Shown one piece after another: positions 2,736-57,262 of a DNA stretch of 64,000 bases; position 1 is the stretch's first letter; each line of letters starts with the position of its first letter. Under the pieces are notes generated by a model that was not told the DNA's origin, did not search any database, and saw only the letters and a program-made list of their open reading frames with translations. Both the position numbers and the translations under genes were made by a program. Source of the stretch: Deltaproteobacteria bacterium. GTDB taxonomy: Bacteria; UBA10199; DSSB01; JACPFA01. Location: positions 39,560 to 103,559 of the forward strand of contig JACPFA010000003.1 in NCBI GenBank assembly GCA_016183235.1. Direction: 5' to 3'.

Positions 2736-2740
2736 ACAGA

Positions 2741-2776
2741 TGTCATTGCGAGTGAAACGAAGCAATCTTCCATTTT
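2741..2776 (-). repeat. Solo arm of hairpin family A/B (TGTCATTGCGAG..GCAATCTTCCATTTT)
   Basis: Reverse complement matches the arm consensus AAATGGAAGATTGC..CTCGCAATGACA. The inner end lies 3 nt before the ATG at 2780. Confidence 0.85.
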
Positions 2777-2779
2777 AGT

Positions 2780-3808
2780 ATGCATAAACCCTCCTATTTA
2801 ACCCTATTCCACAGCGGCGAATTACACAGGCGTGCTGACTTGCTTGAACAGCGCTTAAGCAAATGTGTGATTTGTCCACGTCATTGCGAAGCCAATCGTT
2901 TGGCAAATGTTGAGGGTTTTTGCCAATCAGGTCATCGCCCTTTAGTGGCAAGCCATGTTGCCCACTTTGGAGAAGAACCCATATTGGTGGGAAGCCATGG
3001 TTCGGGGAATATCTTTTTTGGCAGTTGTAACTTGCGTTGTGTGTACTGCCAAAATTGGCAAATCAGTCACACCCAAAAGGGTGAGCGGCCGGGTGAAATT
3101 AGTTTTGAACAATTGGCCGACATGATGATCGATTTGCAAAATCAAGGCTGCCACAATATCAATTTGGTTTCGCCTTCGCATTTTGTGGCCCAAATCATGA
3201 AAGCTCTGGTGTTAGCTTGCGAGCAGGGCTTGCGGCTCCCCCTAGTTTATAACACCAATGCCTATGATGATTTAGAAACATTAAAAATGTTACGTGGTGT
3301 GATTGATATTTATTTGCCTGACCTCAAATATGCCAATGATCAAAATGCCATTAAATATTCCCAAGCTCAAAATTACCAAGCGATTTCTCGCCAGGCTATT
3401 CAAGAAATGTTTAACCAGGTGGGTTTATTAAAATTAGACAAACAGGGGCTCAGCCAGCGAGGCTTGATTGTCCGCCATTTGGTGTTGCCCAATGGCCTGG
3501 CCGATAGTCGTGAAAGTTTGACTTGGATCGCTCAAAACTTATCTCCGCAAGTTAACATTTCAATCATGAGCCAATATTATCCGACTAACAAAGCAACGCG
3601 CGTACCCTTATTATCGAGAAAAATTCGTGAGCATGAATATTGGGAAGTGGTTGATTTGTTGGAAGAACTGAAGATGGAAAATGGATTTTTACAAGAGTTT
3701 GAAAGCGCAGAAACCTATCGGCCTGATTTTAAACGGAATGAGCCATTTGATAATATGGAATTGCTGTCATTGCGAGCCCCGAAGGGCGAAGCAATCTCTT
3801 CTGTCTAA
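2780..3808 (+). CDS. Radical SAM protein, PflX-like (pyruvate formate-lyase-activase homologue family)
   Basis: 342 aa. CNLRCVYCQN (CX3CX2C) plus an N-terminal CVICPRHC Cys cluster. The last ~14 aa (LSLRAPKGEAISSV) are encoded by the repeat at 3764. Confidence 0.8.
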   Translation: MHKPSYLTLFHSGELHRRADLLEQRLSKCVICPRHCEANRLANVEGFCQSGHRPLVASHVAHFGEEPILVGSHGSGNIFFGSCNLRCVYCQNWQISHTQKGERPGEISFEQLADMMIDLQNQGCHNINLVSPSHFVAQIMKALVLACEQGLRLPLVYNTNAYDDLETLKMLRGVIDIYLPDLKYANDQNAIKYSQAQNYQAISRQAIQEMFNQVGLLKLDKQGLSQRGLIVRHLVLPNGLADSRESLTWIAQNLSPQVNISIMSQYYPTNKATRVPLLSRKIREHEYWEVVDLLEELKMENGFLQEFESAETYRPDFKRNEPFDNMELLSLRAPKGEAISSV

Positions 3809-3874
3809 CCGGTGGGATTGCTGAGTTTATCCTGAGGCTTTGCGAAGGACCCTTGTATGACCTCGCAATGACAG
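3764..3874. repeat. A-type hairpin element, 111 bp (CTGTCATTGCGAG ... CTCGCAATGACAG)
   Basis: Terminal inverted repeats read directly. It overlaps the stop codon of the radical SAM gene. Confidence 0.9.
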
Positions 3875-6334: not shown

Positions 6335-6419
6335 TGAATTGAAGAATGAAAATGAAGATTGCCACGCTATCGTGGGTTACCCGATCAAGTCGGGTAATGA
6401 CATGGATTACAATGACATT
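6335..6419 (+). repeat. B-type arm element (ATGAATTGAAGAATGAAAATGAAGATTGCC..ACCCGATCAAGTCGGGT..AATGACAT)
   Basis: Same 5' extension and arm as at 20339-20401. Confidence 0.85.
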
Positions 6420-20177: not shown

Positions 20178-20261
20178 CTGTCATTGCGAGGAATCTGCGA
20201 CGAAGCAATCTCCTCGGTTTAACCGGTGAGATTGCCACGCCCGTTGGGCTCGCAATGACAG
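20178..20261. repeat. A-type hairpin element, 84 bp
   Basis: CTGTCATTGCGAG..CTCGCAATGACAG. Reverse orientation relative to the copies at 52868 and 57179. Confidence 0.9.
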
Positions 20262-20273
20262 AAGCCCTCATAA

Positions 20274-20325
20274 GCCGACCGGGCGTGGGCTCTCCATTGG
20301 CCTCTCCCTGCCTCGAAAAGACGTG
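20274..20325. repeat. Half copy of the E3-type outer stem
   Basis: GCCGACCGGGCGTGGGCTCTCCATTGGCCTCTCCCTGCCTCGAAAAGACGTG matches 53905-53955. Confidence 0.85.
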
Positions 20326-20338
20326 ACACTATTTGCAG

Positions 20339-20401
20339 ATGAATTGAAGAATAAAATGGAAGATTGCCACGCTCGCAAACGGTGCTCGCTCGCAATGACA
20401 T
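20339..20401 (+). repeat. B-type arm element abutting the dgt stop codon
   Basis: ATGAATTGAAGAATAAAATGGAAGATTGCCACGCT..CTCGCAATGACAT. Confidence 0.85.
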
Positions 20402-21564: not shown

Positions 21565-22298
21565 AACACCCCCAATATTTTATGAATTTGTGGAATCACG
21601 CGTACATGGGCGTAATTTTCAGTGGCTACCTTTTGTAAATGCAACAAATGCTCAAGGGAAATAGGCGTTTTGATTCTGCCCCCCGGGCTGACGGGCTGTA
21701 AGATAAGTTCGATGGGCTTTTCGAGATTTTTTAAAAGTTGAGTCGCCATTAAAATATCTTCGGCTTGGGTATCATTCGTTACTATTGCCTTCACATAGAC
21801 CTCTTTTTTTTGGGCCACTTGCAAAAACTTTAAGTGCTCTTGCCAAAATGTCCCGGTTTGAGCAGCGCTGGGCAATTTAAAATCCATGCTTACAATATCT
21901 ACCTGGTCGATGATTGTAGCAAGCCGATCGGCATGAATGCCACTGCTTTCTAATAAAACACGATACCGCCCGGCTAATTGGGTGAGAAGGGCTTGAATAA
22001 ATTTGTGATGGAGCAGGGGTTCACCTCCGGTAAGGCTTAGGGTTTGATTTTGGAAACGTTCGAGATGCGACATGAGCTGGGCAACGGTGCTAGGGTTTTC
22101 AAAATAAGTAAAATCTCCACTGTGCGGGGAATATTCGACTCGATATTTTTCTAATTTTTGAAAGGTCGAAGGAGTATCACAAAAAGCACAAGCCAGATCA
22201 CACTGCAAAAAACGGACAAAAAGCATTTGTTGCCCCACATAGGGTCCCTCGCCCTGAATCGTTGAATAGATCTCGATGAGTGGGGCGGTGAGGGTCAT
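21561..22298 (-). CDS. queE: 7-carboxy-7-deazaguanine synthase (radical SAM)
   Basis: IQGEGPYVGQQMLFVRFLQCDLACAFCDT. ATG at 22298 overlaps the stop of the upstream gene. Confidence 0.85.
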   Translation of the reverse strand: MTLTAPLIEIYSTIQGEGPYVGQQMLFVRFLQCDLACAFCDTPSTFQKLEKYRVEYSPHSGDFTYFENPSTVAQLMSHLERFQNQTLSLTGGEPLLHHKFIQALLTQLAGRYRVLLESSGIHADRLATIIDQVDIVSMDFKLPSAAQTGTFWQEHLKFLQVAQKKEVYVKAIVTNDTQAEDILMATQLLKNLEKPIELILQPVSPGGRIKTPISLEHLLHLQKVATENYAHVRVIPQIHKILGVL

Positions 22299-22852
22299 GG
22301 CACTGCCCTTACTTTTACCAGCGCCTCTTGAACACTGGCAAACTCTTGTTCCCAAGCCTTTAGCACGGCCTTAGCTAAGATGGGGGTAGAGATTTTTAAA
22401 TCTTTTAAACCTATTGTGGGCACGGGGGTATTTTGACTAGAAATATTAAGACCTACATGCAACACCGTTGAAACAGGCGTTACCGTTGCAATCGAAACCG
22501 ATAGTTTTTGCTTTCCCACATAGAGGTCATCGCCTTGGCGTAAGATCGATAATTTGGGTTTTAATTTTAAAATATTTTCCATGATACCAACCATTAAGAG
22601 GCGTTGGGCAAATACCGTGGTGGCAAGATCAAATCCAAAAAATTCGCCAATAAAATGCAACATGCTTTCACTATAAATGGGTTCGCAATTACGCACGTCG
22701 ACTTGATCGACCATGGCTGTCAAAGGCACATCACAAGGCCCCTGGAAGGCGATTAGGCAATTGCCTAAAATACCGGTTTGCTCATAAATAAAATGCGAAC
22801 GTAATTGTGCGCCGTTGTATTGGATTGTTTTATCAAGAAATTTTGTTTTCAT
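22295..22852 (-). CDS. Conserved hypothetical protein, possibly DUF366 family
   Basis: 185 aa, translationally coupled to queE. The family call is from memory of que-cluster neighbours and is unverified. Confidence 0.45.
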   Translation of the reverse strand: MKTKFLDKTIQYNGAQLRSHFIYEQTGILGNCLIAFQGPCDVPLTAMVDQVDVRNCEPIYSESMLHFIGEFFGFDLATTVFAQRLLMVGIMENILKLKPKLSILRQGDDLYVGKQKLSVSIATVTPVSTVLHVGLNISSQNTPVPTIGLKDLKISTPILAKAVLKAWEQEFASVQEALVKVRAVP

Positions 22853-22863
22853 AATTAGATGTT

Positions 22864-22982
22864 ATTGCGAGGACCAAAGAATGGGTGACCCGGTCAGGGG
22901 GCCCCCCACCAGCGCAGAGTCCGCTTGGGGACGAGCACTGCTGGGGGAAAGACCGGGGCACCCATTCTTTGGTCCTCGCAAT
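22864..22982. repeat. C-type GC-rich core inside A-like outer stems
   Basis: ATTGCGAGGACCAAAGAATGGG..core..CCCATTCTTTGGTCCTCGCAAT. Lies between queC and the DUF366-like gene. Confidence 0.9.
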
Positions 22983-22986
22983 GGCA

Positions 22987-23646
22987 TTAGGTGTTATTCG
23001 CCATCGCTCTAAAATATCTTAAGCACGATTCACAATTGCCGCAGGACTTGGCCCCACCCTCATAGCAACTCCACAGCTCCCGAAACGGTACCCCAAGCTT
23101 CATGCCTTCTTGCACAATCTCGGTTTTACTCATCCCCAAGGTAGGGCTTACCACTTCGACATGATTAGCGGTTGAAAAATAGAGGCTTTGATTAATGGCT
23201 TCGACAAATTGGCGTGAATTGTCAGGGAAGGTAGCGGCTTCTTCAATATTAAAACCCACGATGATTTTACCAATGCCTTGGGCCTCGGCAATAAAGGCTG
23301 CCCAATTAATCATGATGCCATTGCGATTAGGTACCCACACCGCACGGGCTGATTTGACGATATGTTCGTGGCTATCCAGATGAGATGATTCTAAAGCAGG
23401 CAAATCCAGTTCGGGATTAACTAAGGCGCCGGCTAAACGTGGTTCGGGTAAAGTCATTTTTATAATTTTATGTTCGCATTCCAGTTGATTACAAATCTTT
23501 TGTGCGGCTTGAATTTCGCGCAGCGCGGCCCGTTGCCCATAATCAAAGGTGAGGGCCAAGGCAATGGGAGCACTTTGACGATAAAGGTAGGCCGCCACTG
23601 TTGAATCAAGACCACCGGAAAGTAAAATTAAGGAACGATTACTCAT
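22987..23646 (-). CDS. queC: 7-cyano-7-deazaguanine synthase
   Basis: LSGGLDST PP-loop, VPNRNG, SCYEGGAKSCGNCESC. Confidence 0.9.
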   Translation of the reverse strand: MSNRSLILLSGGLDSTVAAYLYRQSAPIALALTFDYGQRAALREIQAAQKICNQLECEHKIIKMTLPEPRLAGALVNPELDLPALESSHLDSHEHIVKSARAVWVPNRNGIMINWAAFIAEAQGIGKIIVGFNIEEAATFPDNSRQFVEAINQSLYFSTANHVEVVSPTLGMSKTEIVQEGMKLGVPFRELWSCYEGGAKSCGNCESCLRYFRAMANNT

Positions 23647-23993
23647 AGTAAGATGTCATTCAGAGTCCCTGCGTTGGGCAGGGACGATGAATCTTCCATT
23701 TCCCATTGTTCACATAGATCCTGCCACCCTCTATTTTTAACTTCAATTAACAAAATTTTTTTCTCCCTCGATTTCCCCTTGATCTGTTTTTCCCGACTTA
23801 TAGCTTCATTAATATCACCAAAATATTCCAGATAAACTAACTTGGTAAGATTATACTTTGCAGTAAAAGAACTAGGGATAGTTTTGTTTTTATGTTCATA
23901 AATGCGACGTGTAATATCGTTGGTTACACCCGTATACAAGACGGAGTGATTGATATTAGTCATAATATAAACGTAATAATTATGGTCTTTCAT
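23643..23993 (-). CDS. GIY-YIG (URI-domain) nuclease family protein, small stand-alone type
   Basis: YYVYIM..LYTGVT..RRIYEHK..REKQIKG. The last ~17 aa and the stop are encoded by the left repeat arm. Confidence 0.8.
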   Translation of the reverse strand: MKDHNYYVYIMTNINHSVLYTGVTNDITRRIYEHKNKTIPSSFTAKYNLTKLVYLEYFGDINEAISREKQIKGKSREKKILLIEVKNRGWQDLCEQWEMEDSSSLPNAGTLNDILL

Positions 23994-24031
23994 ATGAAAT
24001 GGAAGATTCTTCGCTCCGCTCTGAATGACAT
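23653..24031 (-). mobile_element. GIY-YIG cassette bounded by inverted B-type arms (candidate autonomous element)
   Basis: Left arm 23653-23701 is the reverse complement of the right arm type at 23997-24031. It fills the queD-queC spacer exactly. Confidence 0.55.
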
Positions 24032-24034
24032 TTA

Positions 24035-24403
24035 TTACTCATAATAACTCGCCGCACAATCGTCGGTTTCCCATACGGTAACACGGGCTACCCGCACCCC
24101 CGCACGGTTTAACTGTTTGCTCATTTCGCCAAAAATAAACTTGGCCACTTGTTCAGCGCTGGGATTTATCTTTTTAAAAAGGGCATTTTCGTTGAGGTAA
24201 GTATAATCGATTTTTTTATAAATACTTTCAGCTTCTTTTTTCACCTCGAGAAAATCAATAAGCACTTCTATGCCATCGAGTTTTTCGCCCATTATTCGTA
24301 TTTCGGTTTTCCAATTATGACCATGGAGTGGCTCCATCGAGCCGTCATAAAGTCGCAAGTTATGGGCCGCCACAAAGGGTTTGGTGATAATGACCTCAAA
24401 CAT
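24035..24403 (-). CDS. queD: COG0720 family protein in the que cluster (QueD-like but lacking the CxxxHGH cysteine)
   Basis: 122 aa. ..GSMEPLHGHNW.., ..VWETDDCAASYYE. Confidence 0.7.
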   Translation of the reverse strand: MFEVIITKPFVAAHNLRLYDGSMEPLHGHNWKTEIRIMGEKLDGIEVLIDFLEVKKEAESIYKKIDYTYLNENALFKKINPSAEQVAKFIFGEMSKQLNRAGVRVARVTVWETDDCAASYYE

Positions 24404-28338: not shown

Positions 28339-28468
28339 CTGGATCCCGGGTCAAGCCCGGGATGATGAGAGATGATGAAGATTGCCACACTCGGCATCAT
28401 GGGTCCCGTCCTCCGACTTGATCGGGGGATCAAGCCGGGGGATGACAGGAGCAGCTCGCAATGACATC
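28339..28468 (+). repeat. Composite B-type hairpins and arm
   Basis: CCCGGGTCAAGCCCGGG, then GAAGATTGCCACACT..GATCAAG..CTCGCAATGACAT. Translated on the opposite strand as the LipA tail. Confidence 0.85.
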
Positions 28469-36110: not shown

Positions 36111-36151
36111 ATGTCATCCCCCGACTTGATCGGGGGATCCACAGATGACAT
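36111..36151. repeat. B-like palindrome in the spacer before mpl
   Basis: ATGTCATCCCCCGACTTGATCGGGGGATCCACAGATGACAT. Confidence 0.85.
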
Positions 36152-36160
36152 TTTGGTCAT

Positions 36161-37612
36161 ATGATTAATCCCAATAAAAATATTTATCTTATGGGTATTT
36201 GTGGCACCGGCATGGCTTCTCTGGCTGGCATGTTGAAGACTCAAGGGCACGTCGTTAAAGGTAGTGACCAAAATGCCTACCCGCCTATGAGCACCAAGCT
36301 GAGTGAACTAGGGATTGAAATTAAAACACCTTATCAAGCAACTAACTTAAATCCACGCCCTGATTTAGTGATCATTGGCAATGCGATTTCTAAAAATCAT
36401 GTGGAGGCCGAGGCCGTTTTACAGCAAGGCATTCCTTATTTATCGATGGCGGCTTGTTTACACGACTTTTTTTTGCAAGATAAAATTTGCCTAGTGGTGG
36501 CTGGTACACATGGCAAGACCACCAGCACAAGTCTGCTCGCCTGGGTGTTAGAATATGCTGGGTTAAACCCTAGTTTTTTTGTGGGTGGTATCCCGCTCAA
36601 TTTTAAAGACAATTTTAAATTGGATACCGGAAAGTATTTTGTGATTGAAGGCGATGAATATGACACCGCCTTTTTTGATAAGGGCCCCAAATTTTTACAT
36701 TACAACCCCACGCACGTGTTGCTCACCAGCATTGAATTTGATCACGCCGATATTTACCGTGATTTGGAACATTTAAAGAGTTCGTTTGTTCAGTTGCTTG
36801 AGATAATTTCTGGCATGGGAAGTTTAGTGGCTAATTTAGATTTTCCAGCGGTGGGAGAAGTTTTGGAGAAAGTAAACTTTAAAAAAACAGTTTGTTACTC
36901 AACAAGAAAGATTGCTTCGCCATCATGGATCCCGGGGCAAGCCCGGGATGACGTGGATTACAATGACATCGTTTTTTATCCAGAAAAAATCCAAGCCACG
37001 CCAGACGGTATGTGTTTCCATCTGAATGGAGTTGAGTTTCTCTTGCCCATGTTTGGCACTCACAATGTCAGCAATGCCGTGGGAGTTGCGCTCATTGCCC
37101 ATCAGATCGGGATTGATCTAAAAACTATTGCCGACGCATTTCGAACTTTCAAAGGCATTAAACGTCGCCAAGAAATTATTGGTGAGCCCCATGGCATTAC
37201 CATCATCGATGACTTTGCCCACCACCCCACCGCCGTGCGCGAAACCATTGCGTCAATTCGAGCCCGCTTTCCTAATCGAAAAATTTGGGCCGTGTTTGAA
37301 CCACGTAGTAATTCGAGTAAGCGCGATGTGTTTCAAAAAGATTATCCAGCTGCCTTCTTAGAAGCTGATGCTGTGCTTATTCACGACGTATTCATGCCCG
37401 AAAAAGTAAAAGATGGAAAAGTTTTGAATGTGGATGAGGTCGTTGCTCAAATCAATCAACAATCTGAACACCTCAAGGCCCAACATCTTTCAGGTATTGA
37501 CACCATCGTTTCTTACATCAAAGATCATGCCAAAGCAGGGGACATATTGCTGATCATGAGTAATGGTGGTTTTGGCGGTATTCATCAACACCTCCTAAAC
37601 AGCCTGATTTGA
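36161..37612 (+). CDS. mpl: UDP-N-acetylmuramate:L-alanyl-gamma-D-glutamyl-meso-DAP ligase
   Basis: IYLMGICGTGMASLAGML, GTHGKTTSTSL. Carries an in-frame repeat at 36907-36969. Confidence 0.9.
   Translation: MINPNKNIYLMGICGTGMASLAGMLKTQGHVVKGSDQNAYPPMSTKLSELGIEIKTPYQATNLNPRPDLVIIGNAISKNHVEAEAVLQQGIPYLSMAACLHDFFLQDKICLVVAGTHGKTTSTSLLAWVLEYAGLNPSFFVGGIPLNFKDNFKLDTGKYFVIEGDEYDTAFFDKGPKFLHYNPTHVLLTSIEFDHADIYRDLEHLKSSFVQLLEIISGMGSLVANLDFPAVGEVLEKVNFKKTVCYSTRKIASPSWIPGQARDDVDYNDIVFYPEKIQATPDGMCFHLNGVEFLLPMFGTHNVSNAVGVALIAHQIGIDLKTIADAFRTFKGIKRRQEIIGEPHGITIIDDFAHHPTAVRETIASIRARFPNRKIWAVFEPRSNSSKRDVFQKDYPAAFLEADAVLIHDVFMPEKVKDGKVLNVDEVVAQINQQSEHLKAQHLSGIDTIVSYIKDHAKAGDILLIMSNGGFGGIHQHLLNSLI
36907..36969 (+). 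repeat. B-type arm element, 63 bp, in frame inside mpl
   Basis: AAAGATTGCTTCGCCATCATGGATCCCGGGGCAAGCCCGGGATGACGTGGATTACAATGACAT, translated KIASPSWIPGQARDDVDYNDI. Confidence 0.85.
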
Positions 37613-41931: not shown

Positions 41932-42015
41932 CGTCATCGCAAGCTTAAAGCAGGCGTGGCAAATTCTAACATTTTAAAATGGAAGATTCTTCATCCTGCT
42001 GGATTTAGAATGACA
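41932..42015 (+). repeat. Degenerate A/B-type element
   Basis: CGTCATCGCAAG..GCAAATTCT..AAATGGAAGATTCTTCATCCTGCTGGATTTAGAATGACA. Confidence 0.7.
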
Positions 42016-42165
42016 ATTAGATGTTAAAAGTACAAATAATATTAATAAGTTATATCTATTTTGGATTAGGAATTTAGTCCTTGCCTAAGGTTATAAAACC
42101 TGGAACAATATTAGCAACAAGTGAAGTGTGAATAACCGATATGTCTTTTAAGAGTAGGTTTTTTC

Positions 42166-43610: not shown

Positions 43611-44513
43611 ATGAAACAATACCAACTTACAAAAAATGCCGCTGGCTTTTTTCTTATCACTGAGCAAACTTTTTTGTGTTTTAGCGGTAAAGAAGTGCAT
43701 ACATTTCTACACAATTATACCACTCAAGATATTAAGAAACTAAAACCTGGGGAAGTGACACAAGCGGCTTTCTTGGATCGTAAAGGCACGATTGTCGCTT
43801 TAAGTTTGATTATAAGACGAGAGGATCATCAATTTTTGGTTAAAGTTGAGAATACTAAAGTGGAGGCATTGCTCAAACATTTAGAGACATTTTTACTGTT
43901 AAGTGAAATTAAGGTTGAAGCACTGCAAAATTTTCAGCACTTGATTGTGCTGGGGCCTAAAAGTGGAAAAGAGATAAAATTGAAGATTGCTTCACCATCA
44001 TGGGTCCCTGCCTCCGCAGGGATGAAATTGTTCGCAATGACATGGAGTTATCATATGTACGGCCTGCCAGGATTTGAGCTGTTGATTCCCAAAAAAAGTC
44101 TGGTAAGGGCTGATTTTGTTGATCCACAAATTCTGGAAATTTTAAGAATTGAAGCGGGTGAGCCTCGGGATGGAGTGGATATTACTGATCATATGCTCAT
44201 CCAAGAAGCGAGGCTGGAAACTTCCGCGGTAAGTTTTACGAAGGGCTGTTACTTGGGCCAAGAAATTGTAGCCAGGGTACACACCCGAGGCCACGTCAAT
44301 CGCAGCCTTAAACAAGTTAAACTACAAAAACCACCTCCTAGCTTGCCGTGGGAGATACAACAAAATGGACAAAAGATTGGCACCATCACCTCTTGCGTTA
44401 AATCGCCGCTTGCCCAAGGGTATTTGGCATTGGGGATCTTCTATCACCAAGCCCTTGACCAAATAGTGAAATTTCACATAGAGTTGTTTTCCCATGACAA
44501 ACCCCCTGATTGA
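43611..44513 (+). CDS. ygfZ: Folate-binding YgfZ-family protein
   Basis: KGCYLGQEIVARV signature. Carries an in-frame repeat at 43982-44043. Confidence 0.85.
   Translation: MKQYQLTKNAAGFFLITEQTFLCFSGKEVHTFLHNYTTQDIKKLKPGEVTQAAFLDRKGTIVALSLIIRREDHQFLVKVENTKVEALLKHLETFLLLSEIKVEALQNFQHLIVLGPKSGKEIKLKIASPSWVPASAGMKLFAMTWSYHMYGLPGFELLIPKKSLVRADFVDPQILEILRIEAGEPRDGVDITDHMLIQEARLETSAVSFTKGCYLGQEIVARVHTRGHVNRSLKQVKLQKPPPSLPWEIQQNGQKIGTITSCVKSPLAQGYLALGIFYHQALDQIVKFHIELFSHDKPPD
43982..44043 (+). repeat. B-type arm element inside ygfZ
   Basis: GAAGATTGCTTCACCATCATGGGTCCCTGCCTCCGCAGGGATGAAATTGTTCGCAATGACAT, translated KIASPSWVPASAGMKLFAMT. Confidence 0.85.
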
Positions 44514-45417: not shown

Positions 45418-46253
45418 ATGCACTTGGGATGTCTGCCGAACAAATTGCGGCAAAAAGCCAATCTAATTTTATAAGTTCGTTTTGGATTTTATCTAAAAAA
45501 CGTCGCCAGGCCTTAACCACATTTTACGCCTTTAGCCGCGTGGTGGATGATGCGGTCGATGAACACTCAAGCGAAATAGCCACAAAACTTATTGCCCAGT
45601 GGCAACAACAAATCAACCTTTGTTATCATGGTTGGCCCACTCAACCCTTAGCGAGTGAATTGCAAAAAATAATTCGTGAATATGAAATCCCTAAAAAATA
45701 TTTTGATGGGATTTTGCAAGGTGTGGCCATGGATATTCACCCGCAAAATTATTCTGATATCTCAAGCTTAGAAAATTACTGCTACCATGTGGCTAGCCTA
45801 GTTGGCTTGGTTTGTATGAAAATTTTTGGAGTCAACGGCCCGGCGGCTGAAACAGCCGCCACCGAATTGGGCTTGGCTTTACAATTCACCAATATTTTAA
45901 GGGATATTGCAGTGGATGCTAAAAAAGGGCGTTTGTATTTACCGCTAGAACTTTTGCAACAATTTGATTTAAGCCCTGATGCCATTCAAACGGGTGTACC
46001 TCGAGAAAAGGTTGTTTTGTGTTTAACCCATTTTGCTAACCTTGCGGAACAGCACTATACAGAGGCCTTTTCACTTATGCAAAATTTGCCTAAAAAACCC
46101 TTACAAGCGGCATGGGTGATGGGAAAGATTTATCATCAAATTTTAAATAAAATACGCCGGAAGAATTATGATGTTTACCAGGGAAAGATCACGTTATCTA
46201 AATTTAGGAAATTTTTTATTTTGCTTAAAGGAATCCTGGATCCCGGGTCTTAG
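45414..46253 (+). CDS. hpnD: Presqualene diphosphate synthase HpnD
   Basis: FYAFSRVVDDAVDE. The stop codon lies inside the hairpin repeat at 46236. Confidence 0.8.
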   Translation: MNALGMSAEQIAAKSQSNFISSFWILSKKRRQALTTFYAFSRVVDDAVDEHSSEIATKLIAQWQQQINLCYHGWPTQPLASELQKIIREYEIPKKYFDGILQGVAMDIHPQNYSDISSLENYCYHVASLVGLVCMKIFGVNGPAAETAATELGLALQFTNILRDIAVDAKKGRLYLPLELLQQFDLSPDAIQTGVPREKVVLCLTHFANLAEQHYTEAFSLMQNLPKKPLQAAWVMGKIYHQILNKIRRKNYDVYQGKITLSKFRKFFILLKGILDPGS

Positions 46254-46290
46254 CCCGGGATGACGTGCAGCCGTCATTCCGGCCCCCTGA
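46236..46290. repeat. Two B-like GC hairpins
   Basis: CCCGGGTCTTAGCCCGGG and TTCCGGCCCCCTGAGCCGGAA. Confidence 0.8.
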
Positions 46291-46320
46291 GCCGGAATCC
46301 ATTCCCTTTCTCTATAACTT

Positions 46321-52536: not shown

Positions 52537-53511
52537 ATGACAACTCAAACCTGGACTATTCTTACTCTACTGCAATGGACCGAGCAATTTTTTCAAAAAA
52601 AGGGGCTTGATTCCCCTCGGCTCGATGCTGAATTGCTTTTGGCAAATTGCCTTAAACTCACTCGCGTACAACTTTATACAAATTTTGAACGACCAATCAA
52701 TGAAGCCGAGCTTGCTCAATTTAAGGCCTTAATTCAGCGCCGGGCCAATCGTGAACCGCTTGCTTACATTACAGGCGAAAAAGATTTTTTTTCACTTCCG
52801 TTTCGAATTCGGCCCGGGGTGTTGATCCCCCGACCTGAAACAGAGCTGATTGTGGAGTTGGGCATATCTGTCATTGCTAGCCCAACGGGCGTGGCAATCT
52901 CACCGATTAGACAGAAGAGATTGCTTCACCCCGCTGGGTTCGCAATGACAGATATGCCCCTTTATAATGACACCATTAAAATCCTCGATATCGGCACAGG
53001 CTCGGGTTGTATTCTCATTTCACTCTTAAAAAATCTAGCGTCCTCTACTGGCATTGCCATGGATGTTAGCCCAGAGGCCATTGCCTGTGCCCAAGAAAAT
53101 GCCGCGTTTCATGGGGTGTTAGAGCGTATCCAGTGGATCAATCGTGATTTTACTAATTTTGACCAACCTGAATTTGACCATGCCTTTGATTTAATTGTGG
53201 CCAACCTCCCCTATGTTAGTAGCGATGAAATCGAAGGGCTTATGCCCGAGGTAGCCAAGTTTGAACCGCGGAAAGCCCTGGTGGCAAAGAACCACGGACT
53301 CGATTTAATTTTTCAATTGATCAATCGACTCAGAAATTGGCTTAAACCGACGGGTAAAGCCCTATTGGAAATTGGAGCCACTCAAGGCAAGGCGTGCCTT
53401 GAATTCATTTCTAAAAACTCTTACCTACAAGCCAAACTTCACCAAGACCTAGCCCATCACGATCGCGTTCTTGAAATTGAAATCGTGCAGAGAGACAATT
53501 GCCAAACCTAA
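52537..53511 (+). CDS. prmC: Peptide chain release factor N5-glutamine methyltransferase
   Basis: IPRPETE, DIGTGSGCI, NLPYV. Carries an 84-bp in-frame repeat. Confidence 0.85.
   Translation: MTTQTWTILTLLQWTEQFFQKKGLDSPRLDAELLLANCLKLTRVQLYTNFERPINEAELAQFKALIQRRANREPLAYITGEKDFFSLPFRIRPGVLIPRPETELIVELGISVIASPTGVAISPIRQKRLLHPAGFAMTDMPLYNDTIKILDIGTGSGCILISLLKNLASSTGIAMDVSPEAIACAQENAAFHGVLERIQWINRDFTNFDQPEFDHAFDLIVANLPYVSSDEIEGLMPEVAKFEPRKALVAKNHGLDLIFQLINRLRNWLKPTGKALLEIGATQGKACLEFISKNSYLQAKLHQDLAHHDRVLEIEIVQRDNCQT
52868..52951. repeat. A-type hairpin element, 84 bp, in frame inside prmC
   Basis: CTGTCATTGCTAG..TTCGCAATGACAG, translated SVIASPTGVAISPIRQKRLLHPAGFAMT. The flanks GGGCATAT / ATATGCCC extend the palindrome. 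Confidence 0.9.
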
Positions 53512-53743: not shown

Positions 53744-53751
53744 CAGAAAGT

Positions 53752-53950
53752 CTTTTCGAGGTAGGGAGAGGCCAAGGGAGAGCCTTTTAGCGCAGGAGGT
53801 CGGACGTAGGAGGGTTAAAAAATTTTATTGTTTTTTTGAATTAGAGGATGACGAAGGAATACTCTAATTCAATTAAAAACAAAAAATTTTTTAGCCCGAC
53901 TAGGCCGACCGGGCGCGGGCTCTCCATTGGCCTCTCCCTACCTCGAAAAG
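53752..53950. repeat. E3-type element: E core with different outer stems
   Basis: CTTTTCGAGGTAGGGAGAGGCCAAGGGAGAGCC / GGCTCTCCATTGGCCTCTCCCTACCTCGAAAAG. Core TTTTTTTGAATTAGAGGATGACGAAGGAATACTCTAATTCAAT. Confidence 0.9.
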
Positions 53951-53999
53951 ACGTGGAGTAGTATTTGACTCTCCTTATAAATAGGCTTAGATCAGCGGG

Positions 54000-57178: not shown

Positions 57179-57262
57179 CTGTCATTGCGAGCCCAACGGG
57201 CGCGGCAATCTCACCGGTTATACAGAAGAGATTGCTTCACCCTGCTGGGTTCGCAATGACAG
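57179..57262. repeat. A-type hairpin element, 84 bp
   Basis: Near-identical to the prmC copy. Ends 2 nt before the DAHP synthase stop codon. Confidence 0.9.

Follow-up and report, generated by a model that had tools for sequence, protein, structure and literature searches.

We analyzed a 64,000-nucleotide stretch of the Deltaproteobacteria bacterium assembly GCA_016183235.1 (contig JACPFA010000003.1, positions 39,560 to 103,559; this whole stretch is hereafter the window, and positions are counted within it). Between its queD and queC genes lies a small gene for a GIY-YIG nuclease, bracketed by two inverted copies ("arms") of a dispersed hairpin repeat. Our results indicate that the gene and its arms are very probably an Ssn/SRM pair, that is, a single-domain GIY-YIG nuclease with its hairpin repeat, and that they entered the junction as a unit. 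Comparison with a close relative revealed that the cassette arrived at queD-queC as an insertion, and the arm-ssn-arm segment behaves as a mobile unit. The pairing itself is already published: the original prediction, made from the letters of the window, was aware of no described repeat family with a GIY-YIG partner, but Chenal et al. 2025 (Nat Commun 16:2388, PMC11893778) describe exactly such a pairing. What is new here is a variant of the repeat and the evidence for insertion. The junction has the following features.

23651..24033, minus strand: inserted cassette arm-ssn-arm, 383 bp if its ends are symmetric, 4 nt outside each GTCAT (range 382-386 bp).
23643..23993, minus strand: ssn-like gene for a single-domain GIY-YIG nuclease of 116 aa (PF01541, E=5e-16), filling the queD-queC spacer.
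23997..24031, minus strand: upstream arm, in gene sense ATGTCATTCAGAGCGGAGCGAAGAATCTTCCATTT, with 3 nt between the arm end and the start codon and the grammar T-GTC-ATTCA...(A)GAAT-C.
23653..23701, plus strand: downstream arm, an inverted copy reading ATGTCATTCAGAG-TCCCTGCGTTGGGCAGGGA-CGATGAATCTTCCATTT on the plus strand, with a GC-rich hairpin in its loop; it encodes the tail of the open reading frame (ORF).
23638..23650: queC-proximal target-site duplication, ATTACTCATAGTA, carrying the queC start codon.
24034..24046: queD-proximal target-site duplication, ATTACTCATAATA, which includes the stop codon of queD and exactly matches the one copy in the empty site.
24035..24403, minus strand: queD (6-pyruvoyl-tetrahydropterin synthase family, PTPS; PF01242, E=3e-32), the upstream neighbour; host context, outside the element.
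22987..23646, minus strand: queC (PF06508, E=1e-52), the downstream neighbour; likewise host context outside the element.

The evidence for insertion comes from L091, a contig that turned up when metagenomes were scanned with QueC. It encodes a QueC with 94% amino acid identity to that of the window, and the flanking DNA is 94% (queD) and 89% (queC) identical. In this contig the two genes overlap by 8 nt without any intervening sequence, constituting an empty site that reads ...GAGTTAT[TATGAGTAAT]CGAGC..., whereas the site in the window reads ...GAGTTAT[TATGAGTAAT]AAAT-GTCATTCAGAG...CTCTGAATGAC-ATCTTAC[TATGAGTAAT]CGTTCC... The alignment can be read in two ways: as an insertion of 386 bp in which 10 bp are directly duplicated without mismatch (TATGAGTAAT, gene sense), or as an element of 382-383 bp with an imperfect duplication of 13-14 bp (14 nt at 93%, one substitution). 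The element has terminal inverted repeats and one clear duplication of 10-14 bp, which restores both the stop codon of queD and the start codon of queC. The left junction lies exactly 4 nt from GTCAT, which is the cut position of SsnA (see below), and the right junction is 0-3 nt off, depending on how the duplication is read.

A second operon gave a related picture. The closest homologue of the window protein (P0002, 75% identity) is encoded by an arm-gene-arm cassette of 361 bp that separates oppB from oppC in a related organism, and one of the contigs that carry it is from the same metagenome as L091. OppC in the window organism's population is 98% identical, and the oppB-oppC junction there consists of an arm pair (inverted arm, 9 nt, forward arm; R-9nt-F) with no gene. 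Since the ssn genes of two close lineages differ, as do the operon junctions that hold them, turnover explains the data rather than old synteny. An old conserved queD-ssn-queC order, into which arms inserted independently, is refuted by the empty site of L091 and by the location of the closest homologue in an opp operon. In the contigs themselves, the oppB-oppC junction of the window organism's population (L101, 559-631) is a tail-to-tail pair whose CTTCCATTTTAT leader runs into the oppC ATG, and that of the relative (L004, 9956-10331) holds the arm-ssn-arm cassette. Further empty sites were sought by exact-protein look-ups of queC and queD, which gave nothing but the filled locus or contigs that break off at arms. 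Assemblies cannot be relied on at the arm repeats, where several contigs break; one public Logan contig (L090, 1049-1066) ends in a Nextera adapter (CTGTCTCTTATACACATCT) directly after ATGTCATTC.

The spacer block, its inverted arms, the ORF running through the left arm and the stop codon over the queC ATG were all part of the original prediction, and we recovered each of them. In gene sense the block is laid out as ATGTCATTCAGAGcggagcgaaGAATCTTCCATTTcat-ATG...ORF...TGGGAAATGGAAGATTCatcg[TCCCTGCccaacGCAGGGA]CTCTGAATGACAT. The arms match each other in inverted orientation over 18 nt (23685-23702 with 23996-24013, 94% complementary) and over 13 nt (23653-23665 with 24019-24031, 100% complementary), and the upstream arm has one stem mismatch. 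The nuclease is the sole ORF of the cassette, which encodes no transposase of any known class; the window protein did not match Y1_Tnp (the HUH/Y1 transposase of the IS200/IS605 type), and a search of NCBIfam with it gave no match. PF01541 (residues 5-79) is its sole Pfam domain, with no second DNA-binding domain. The core spans about 100 aa; the last ~17 (residues ~100-116) are read-through into the downstream arm and end in a TGA that overlaps the ATG of queC. The AlphaFold2 model (predicted local distance difference test, pLDDT, 84.7) is a compact, confidently predicted single GIY-YIG domain to about residue 100, followed by a disordered arm-encoded tail (residues 103-116, pLDDT <50); its nearest structures are UPF0213 1ZG2 and then Slx1.

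The Ssn family comprises single-domain GIY-YIG nucleases of ~94 aa accompanied by hairpin repeats named NTS or SRM, which typically border their genes; SsnA of Neisseria meningitidis is NMV_0044, with 94 aa, assigned to cd10448 (GIY-YIG_unchar_3) in CDD (PMC11893778). The window protein is 43% identical over 86 aa to SsnA of N. gonorrhoeae, translated from L096 (BLASTP, E=6e-23), the threshold for Ssn homology in that paper being E<1e-10 (PMC11893778). A tblastn search of plasmid and chromosome records with the window protein also found the gonococcal chromosome (E=1e-13). The gene of the gonococcal homologue lies inside an array of CGTCATTCCCGCGCAGGCGGGAATC repeats, which are the classical dRS3/NIME repeats. 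Residues Y9, Y20 and E68 of the window protein align with Y6, Y17 and E64 of SsnA, and all three are invariant in 42 homologues; in SsnA, the substitutions Y6A, Y17A and E64A abolish cleavage (PMC11893778). SsnA binds NTS as single-stranded DNA (ssDNA) only and on one strand only, cuts upstream of it, does not cleave double-stranded DNA (dsDNA) and does not bind RNA (PMC11893778). From the 37-nt and 28-nt substrates we place the SsnA cut 3 nt upstream of where NTS begins, a position 4 nt 5' of GTCAT. The GTC upstream of the palindrome is most critical for cutting, the C right after the palindrome for binding, and recognition is sequence-specific for the palindrome (PMC11893778). Both cassette arms contain this grammar as defined by SsnA mutagenesis, T-GTC-ATTCA...GAAT-C. 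Given the homology to SsnA, the three catalytic residues, and arms with GTC, trailing C and a pyrimidine at position -1, we assign the cassette to the Ssn/SRM pairs.

The published search pattern for SRM is HGTCWYN(0-2)YYVSBRHN(0-5)WNVSBRGN(0-2)RNCYNB, which requires a GC-rich palindrome. By this pattern, 71% of the regions around homologues contain the repeat and 42% have it on both sides (PMC11893778), from which we conclude that the pattern is a search heuristic and not a defining feature of the family. Its only matches in the window are two GC-rich arms, at 36112-36142 and 46236-46265, none of them at an ATTGC arm, the abundant type described below.

The window protein has more than 3,000 relatives, and those with 55-70% identity come from many phyla; homologues at 55-65% identity occur in more than 10. 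Homologues are 93-105 aa long, and many of the annotated ones have N- or C-terminal extensions (...EDSSLRSE, EIASLRSQ, EILRFAQDD, CHCERAP..VAI) that are translated arm sequence. We assessed the linkage of gene and arms in 80 loci from 80 species and more than 10 phyla, including Bacteroidota, Cyanobacteria, Chloroflexota, Planctomycetota, Bacillota, the candidate phyla radiation (CPR), Elusimicrobiota, Omnitrophota and several proteobacterial classes. A correctly oriented arm within 160 nt was present upstream of the gene in 47 of the 80 loci, compared to 3.4% of control positions in the same loci, and downstream in 56, compared to 4.2%. Both sides had one in 37 loci (0.2% of controls), and at least one side in 66. 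The density of arms per 10 kb is 34.5 at distances of up to 500 nt from the gene, drops to about 2 beyond that, and is 0.31 in shuffled sequences. Within the same 500 nt, the published SRM pattern was found at a single locus, and the generic grammar at 75, on both sides at 61. The architecture proposed in the original prediction (a nuclease gene between inverted copies of a dispersed hairpin, similar to that of repetitive extragenic palindromic elements, REP, and REP-associated tyrosine transposases, RAYT) therefore holds well beyond the window, and GIY-YIG paralogues elsewhere do carry arms, at the 66 loci just given. The association also appears when starting from the repeats, as 81% of the genomes with more than 200 SRMs carry the gene (PMC11893778).

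Across these loci the position just before the arm (-1) is a pyrimidine in 92% of cases and T, C or A in 95% (n=555), whereas positions -2 to -10 are random; an extension of the inverted repeats over 30 cassettes, done to define the element ends, found position -1 alone to be conserved. The 4-nt box in the stem varies by species (TTGC, TTCT, TCCT, TTCC, TTTC, CTTC, TGCT), and its 3' complement varies in step. In a covariation matrix of sites selected on the 5' half-site only, to avoid circularity, the matching 3' complement was found in 214/239 sites for TTGC, 105/128 for TTCT, 53/75 for TCCT, 39/46 for TTTC and 19/23 for one further box. Since the matrix is strongly diagonal, with almost nothing off the diagonal, the stem is under selection. 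Proteins with the same box are more alike (61.3% versus 56.6% identity, not reached in any of 2000 permutations), a difference that is confounded by host phylogeny. The arm of this subclade consists of a 5-bp stem starting with ATT, an internal loop with conserved GAG...GAA, and a distal element. The latter resembles GCGAAGC or is a GC-rich hairpin of arbitrary sequence, and in some arms the loop holds a whole GC-rich hairpin of the SRM type. The gene is present in 1-2 copies per complete replicon, with a second copy within 10 kb in 4 of the 80 loci only.

We made several further observations at individual loci. In one Thermodesulfovibrio-like locus recovered from different samples (L102, L104, L107, L108), ssn and its context are constant and the arm arrays differ by whole modules of ~190 nt, the downstream spacer being 147, 333 or 561 nt long; the arrays thus expand and contract within the population, and the changes in length look like unequal recombination between repeats. 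In several phyla the 5' half-site of the arm "stutters" (GTCATTCTGAG.. or ..CAGAATGAC) every ~20-25 nt beside complete arms without forming a hairpin (flanks of L102-L107, L076, L079, L063 and L020; L097, 1190-1250 and 1840-1900), which could be a trace left by many rounds of cutting and repair at the site of Ssn. The plasmid of Planktothrix agardhii (NZ_LR882964.1, 18847-19131; L097) carries a homologue with 65% identity between a type IIL MmeI restriction-modification gene and DISARM drmA, that is, in a defence-island context, with arm arrays on both sides. The recF-gyrB spacer, which holds an ssn cassette in L060, is occupied in relatives of L060 by unrelated hairpins or by a DUF559 cassette. 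The latter was found in an Oscillospiraceae relative with 91% RecF identity (L123, 3616-4110), where a 116-aa DUF559 gene (PF04480, endonuclease-like) lies between near-perfect inverted repeats of ~48 nt (CTTGCCCCCCGCG..GGGGGGAG / inverse). This DUF559 gene adds a different kind of small nuclease gene between inverted arms to the same hotspot, and two other relatives have unrelated hairpins there.

Within the window the arms form a dispersed family whose copy number far exceeds chance. The terminal motif CTCKSAATGACAT has 22 matches against 4.1 expected, a number reached in none of 100 shuffles, and a structural definition (GTCA, a 4-nt box, then the complement of the box followed by TC) yields 18 copies against 1.6 in shuffles. 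Overall we count ~22 credible arms in the 64 kb, mostly outside long ORFs: 14 of the ATTGC type, 3 ATTCA/ATTCT, and 5 of the GC-rich ATCCC/ATTCC type. The solo copies previously noticed at 2741, 6350, 20354, 28373, 36907, 41977 and 43982 exist, as do the head-to-head pairs at 3764, 20178, 52868 and 57179. These four pairs (84-111 bp) have the polarity of the cassette, with GTCAT ends outward. The individual arms and pairs are as follows.

3764..3874: non-coding head-to-head pair (forward arm, loop, inverted arm; F-loop-R), ATTGC type, 111 bp.
20178..20261: non-coding head-to-head pair, ATTGC type, 84 bp.
52868..52951: non-coding head-to-head pair, ATTGC type, 84 bp, with a palindrome 8 nt longer (GGGCATAT/ATATGCCC).
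57179..57262: non-coding head-to-head pair, ATTGC type, 84 bp.
2740..2775, plus strand: solo arm, ATTGC type, with CTTCCATTT extension.
20354..20401, minus strand: solo arm, ATTGC type, with AAATGGAAGATTG extension.
41977..42016, minus strand: solo arm of the cassette's own subtype (ATTCT; AAATGGAAGATTC...TTTAGAATGAC), adjoined by a degenerate partner.
28380..28465, minus strand: ATTGC arm with a hairpin of the GTCATCCCC...GGGGGAT type nested in its loop.
43985..44041, minus strand: ATTGC arm with a nested TCCCTGC...GCAGGGA hairpin.
36112..36142, plus strand: canonical SRM TGTCATCCCCCGACTTGATCGGGGGATCCAC, matching the published degenerate pattern.
46236..46265, minus strand: canonical SRM, matching the published pattern, tail-to-tail with another arm at 46273-46299.

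The cassette had been predicted to be bounded by arms of the most abundant of these repeats. The cassette arms are related to these abundant copies but of a different subtype: the stem box of the cassette is ATTCA/ATTCT (GTCATTCAGAG...GAATC), versus ATTGC in the abundant dispersed copies (GTCATTGCGAG...GCAATC). A AAATGGAAGATT extension is common to cassette-type and ATTGC-type arms, consistent with related, separate subtypes. Prediction of DNA folding supports a hairpin in the long arms (the downstream arm of the cassette folds with -12.2 kcal/mol, z=-5.2), not in the short ones.

Some arms of the window are composite. At 28380-28465, 43985-44041, 6349-6413 and 36907-36970, a complete GC-rich hairpin (GTCATCCCC..GGGGGAT, TCCCTGC..GCAGGGA or GATCCCGGG..CCCGGGATGAC) lies inside the loop of an ATTGC-type arm, which suggests that arms can insert into arms. 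Two arms, 43985-44041 and 52870-52949, are well inside long ORFs (43611-44513 and 52537-53511, both plus strand). The same operon contains a DUF366 gene (22295-22852, on the minus strand like queD and queC), and the spacer between queC and this gene (22859-22987) is filled by a palindromic element of 129 bp. Its 27-nt termini (ATGTTATTGCGAGGACCAAAGAATGGGTG / inverse) start like the 5' half-site of the arm; the 3' complement found in an arm is missing, and the termini pair with one another instead of folding individually. There is also an unrelated 33-nt repeat, CTCTCC(A/C)TTGGCCTCTCCCT(G/A)CCTCGAAAAGAC, with three copies against 0 expected (20290-20322, plus; 53750-53782, minus; 53920-53952, plus), one of which adjoins the arm pair 20178-20261. 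A scan of the whole window against Rfam found no family.

By analogy with SsnA, the enzyme would bind the folded arm on one strand only and cut ~4 nt 5' of GTCAT. As the arms are inverted, one cut is predicted at each outer edge of the cassette, the two falling on opposite strands. In this account the arm-ssn-arm segment came into the queD-queC junction as a single ~383-bp unit with duplication of 10-14 bp of target, and the gene is now carried on the transcript of the que operon. We infer from the homology that the window protein cuts the arms of its cassette, and such cuts may bear on the spread of the cassette, of the solo arms, and of the pairs and arrays. That Ssn itself is the mobilising enzyme is doubtful. 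If it does drive movement, host replication and repair would be needed, because Ssn has no dsDNA or joining activity. The original prediction that the protein propagates or processes the hairpins is supported as to processing, through the homology to SsnA, which cuts ssDNA beside hairpins (PMC11893778); propagation is a conjecture, no Ssn being known to transpose.

A number of results weigh against this account of the cassette. There is just one clean pair of filled and empty sites: neither 28 other arm-gene-arm cassettes nor the 84-bp pairs of the window had a consistent target duplication, and the recF-gyrB site (L060 versus L122, L123 and L124) is too diverged to read a duplication or a boundary. 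The arrangement of arms around the gene is not uniform either, with GTCAT outward (F|R) at 28 loci, the reverse (R|F) at 9, and mixed or one-sided arms at the rest, often due to the gene sitting inside an arm array. Two homologues are each found in a single stable context across at least 10 samples, with changes confined to the flanking arrays, which vary by whole modules of ~190 nt, and look resident rather than actively transposing. No stable DNA hairpin is predicted by the nearest-neighbour model for the upstream arm of the cassette (-0.9 kcal/mol) or for short arms of 26 nt (-2.7 kcal/mol; z about 0 to +1), and the published SRM pattern does not match the cassette arms. The activity of Ssn on arms of the ATTGC and ATTCT types, that of the window protein included, is a prediction. 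The enzyme may even spare the abundant ATTGC copies, because the cassette arms are of another stem subtype and SsnA is sensitive to the sequence of the palindrome. Finally, a hydrolytic nuclease without dsDNA activity cannot alone explain integration or a staggered target cut of 10-14 bp.

Several of these points suit a rival explanation that we rate only somewhat below an even chance, in which Ssn and its repeats are a domesticated resident system, as are RAYT/REP or SsnA/NTS. In most hosts the system would serve the host in ssDNA restriction or control of recombination, for instance by cutting incoming or exposed ssDNA beside repeats; the cassette would have spread by other means, and the copy at queD/queC would have come by ordinary recombination or horizontal transfer. 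In Neisseria, deletion of ssnA raises transformation ~5-fold, for NTS-bearing DNA only, and restriction of transforming ssDNA is the sole demonstrated biological role of an Ssn (PMC11893778). The single copy and stable context of the gene, the arrays that vary by whole modules, and the defence neighbourhood of the Planktothrix copy (MmeI, DISARM drmA) also favour a resident system. However, homologous recombination would not easily produce the clean duplication and the tight 383-bp unit within a gene overlap of 8 nt. Moreover, the closest homologue is just 75% identical and at another locus, though host genes are 94-98% identical, which points to repeated independent acquisitions.

At the opposite extreme, a stronger version of our preferred explanation, entry as a unit, takes the cassette as an autonomous mini-transposon, and this we regard as possible but rather unlikely. 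Ssn would nick each strand 5' of an arm, release or copy the element, and integrate it with a staggered cut of the target; solo arms, 84-bp pairs and arrays would then be non-autonomous derivatives comparable to miniature inverted-repeat transposable elements (MITEs), an extension held just as tentatively. The terminal inverted arms with a 10-14-bp target duplication at queD/queC, the left junction at the position of the SsnA cut, the occurrence at different loci in related organisms, and the 55-65% identical homologues in more than 10 phyla fit such an element. So do the non-coding F-loop-R pairs, which share the polarity of the cassette, and the R-spacer-F duplications that flank the gene in L026 and L082, as these are expected if a cut-to-cut unit inserts at another cut site. 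On the other hand, only one target duplication was found, Ssn lacks dsDNA and ligation activity, the gene is mostly single-copy (1-2 per complete replicon, as above) and stable in populations, and the length changes of the arrays resemble unequal recombination between repeats.

We consider it very improbable that the gene is a free-standing GIY-YIG homing endonuclease, which would exploit a pre-existing palindromic repeat, making a double-strand break in gene-less hairpin pairs and entering their loop as a copy through repair. Homing endonucleases of the GIY-YIG type are common, and the ORF is located exactly where non-coding pairs have their loop. However, the protein is a catalytic core of ~95 aa without a DNA-binding domain, its characterised homologues do not cut dsDNA, a collection of 50,697 phage genomes contained no homologue at E<=1e-8, the empty queD/queC site has no hairpin pair to home into, and R|F and array arrangements exist. 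This explanation is largely refuted. Less probable still, to the point of being negligible, is a coincidence or RNA-level element, in which terminator or RNA-processing hairpins gathered in spacers independently of a housekeeping GIY-YIG gene: arms are mostly outside long ORFs and do occur in operon spacers, but their density is ~15-fold higher beside the gene in the 80 species, the empty site lacks both gene and arms, arms point either way with respect to transcription, SsnA shows no binding of RNA and no Rfam family is present in the window. The empty site and the cross-species linkage refute this explanation.

Our reading of the cassette as an Ssn/SRM pair can be placed among known systems. 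With the described Ssn proteins and their NTS/SRM repeats it shares a single-domain GIY-YIG protein of ~94-100 aa (43% identical, catalytic Y/Y/E kept), inverted hairpin repeats on both sides of the gene, the repeat grammar H-GTC-(ATT...palindrome...AAT)-C, repeats that are also dispersed, mostly intergenic and clustered, and a comparable linkage of gene and repeat (83% on at least one side and 46% on both here, versus 71% and 42% published). The repeats differ: the published SRM has an 8-bp GC-rich palindrome, whereas the stem here has 5 bp (ATTCA/ATTCT/ATTGC), followed by the GAG/GAA internal loop and a distal hairpin or GCGAAGC, and the short-stem arms of the subclade are therefore missed by the published pattern (1/80 loci). 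The host here is an uncultured deltaproteobacterium-like metagenome-assembled genome, in a subclade that spans Bacteroidota, Cyanobacteria, Chloroflexota, CPR and others, and this member is known from its sequence alone. The Ssn paper likened NTS-ssnA-NTS to an insertion sequence (IS) and to RAYT/REP in its Discussion, with no mobility shown, and the word "duplication" is absent from its text (PMC11893778); here, in contrast to that hypothesis, a cassette was caught as an insertion with target duplication.

As in REP and bacterial interspersed mosaic elements (BIME) with RAYT, a single-copy nuclease gene lies between inverted copies of a dispersed extragenic hairpin with a conserved 5' tetranucleotide (GTAG for REP, GTCA here), solo copies, inverted pairs and arrays occur, and the substrate is a single-stranded hairpin. 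Unlike RAYT (TnpA_REP, an HUH Y1 enzyme of the IS200/IS605 superfamily with a covalent tyrosine intermediate), Ssn is a hydrolytic GIY-YIG nuclease of unrelated fold that does not rejoin DNA by itself. Terminal inverted repeats, short non-coding derivatives with the ends of the coding copy, and a target-site duplication at the sole analysable site recall MITEs and their parent IS (Correia/NEMIS, Nezha, derivatives of IS630/Tc1). In contrast to MITE parents, there is no DDE, serine or tyrosine transposase and the coding copy has just ~383 bp; in contrast to MITEs, the duplication was not seen at other copies, and the arms are individually structured hairpins that also occur solo. I-TevI and the Seg proteins have the GIY-YIG catalytic core in common with the window protein, and are likewise small, selfish-looking genes in intergenic spacers; unlike them, the window protein has no DNA-binding domain, homologues that do not cleave dsDNA, no association with phages or introns, and flanks of inverted hairpins.

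The repeat variant missed by the published pattern dominates a large multi-phylum subclade (Bacteroidota, Cyanobacteria, Chloroflexota, Planctomycetota, Bacillota, CPR and others). Since the pattern misses these repeats, the published share of homologues without repeats (~29%) probably reflects an underestimate, and the choice of Ssn/repeat specificities for use as ssDNA tools widens accordingly. The filled and empty queD-queC sites provide direct evidence, at the level of sequence, for arm-ssn-arm moving as one unit with duplication of its target. As far as the literature could be searched here, this is to present knowledge the first site-level evidence of arm-ssn-arm inserting with target duplication; it makes testable the IS-like nature of the cassette, a mere hypothesis in the Ssn paper, and the left junction at the SsnA cut position points to a possible link between the nuclease and the element ends. 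Our boldest and only tentative proposal is that arm-ssn-arm is an autonomous transposable element of ~383 bp, with ends set by two strand-specific Ssn nicks 4 nt outside GTCAT and a target duplication of 10-14 bp. If true, no smaller self-encoded mobile element would be known from bacteria, it would have given rise to the dispersed solo arms, 84-bp pairs and arrays as non-autonomous progeny, and the GIY-YIG fold would have a REP/RAYT-like role across more than 10 bacterial phyla.

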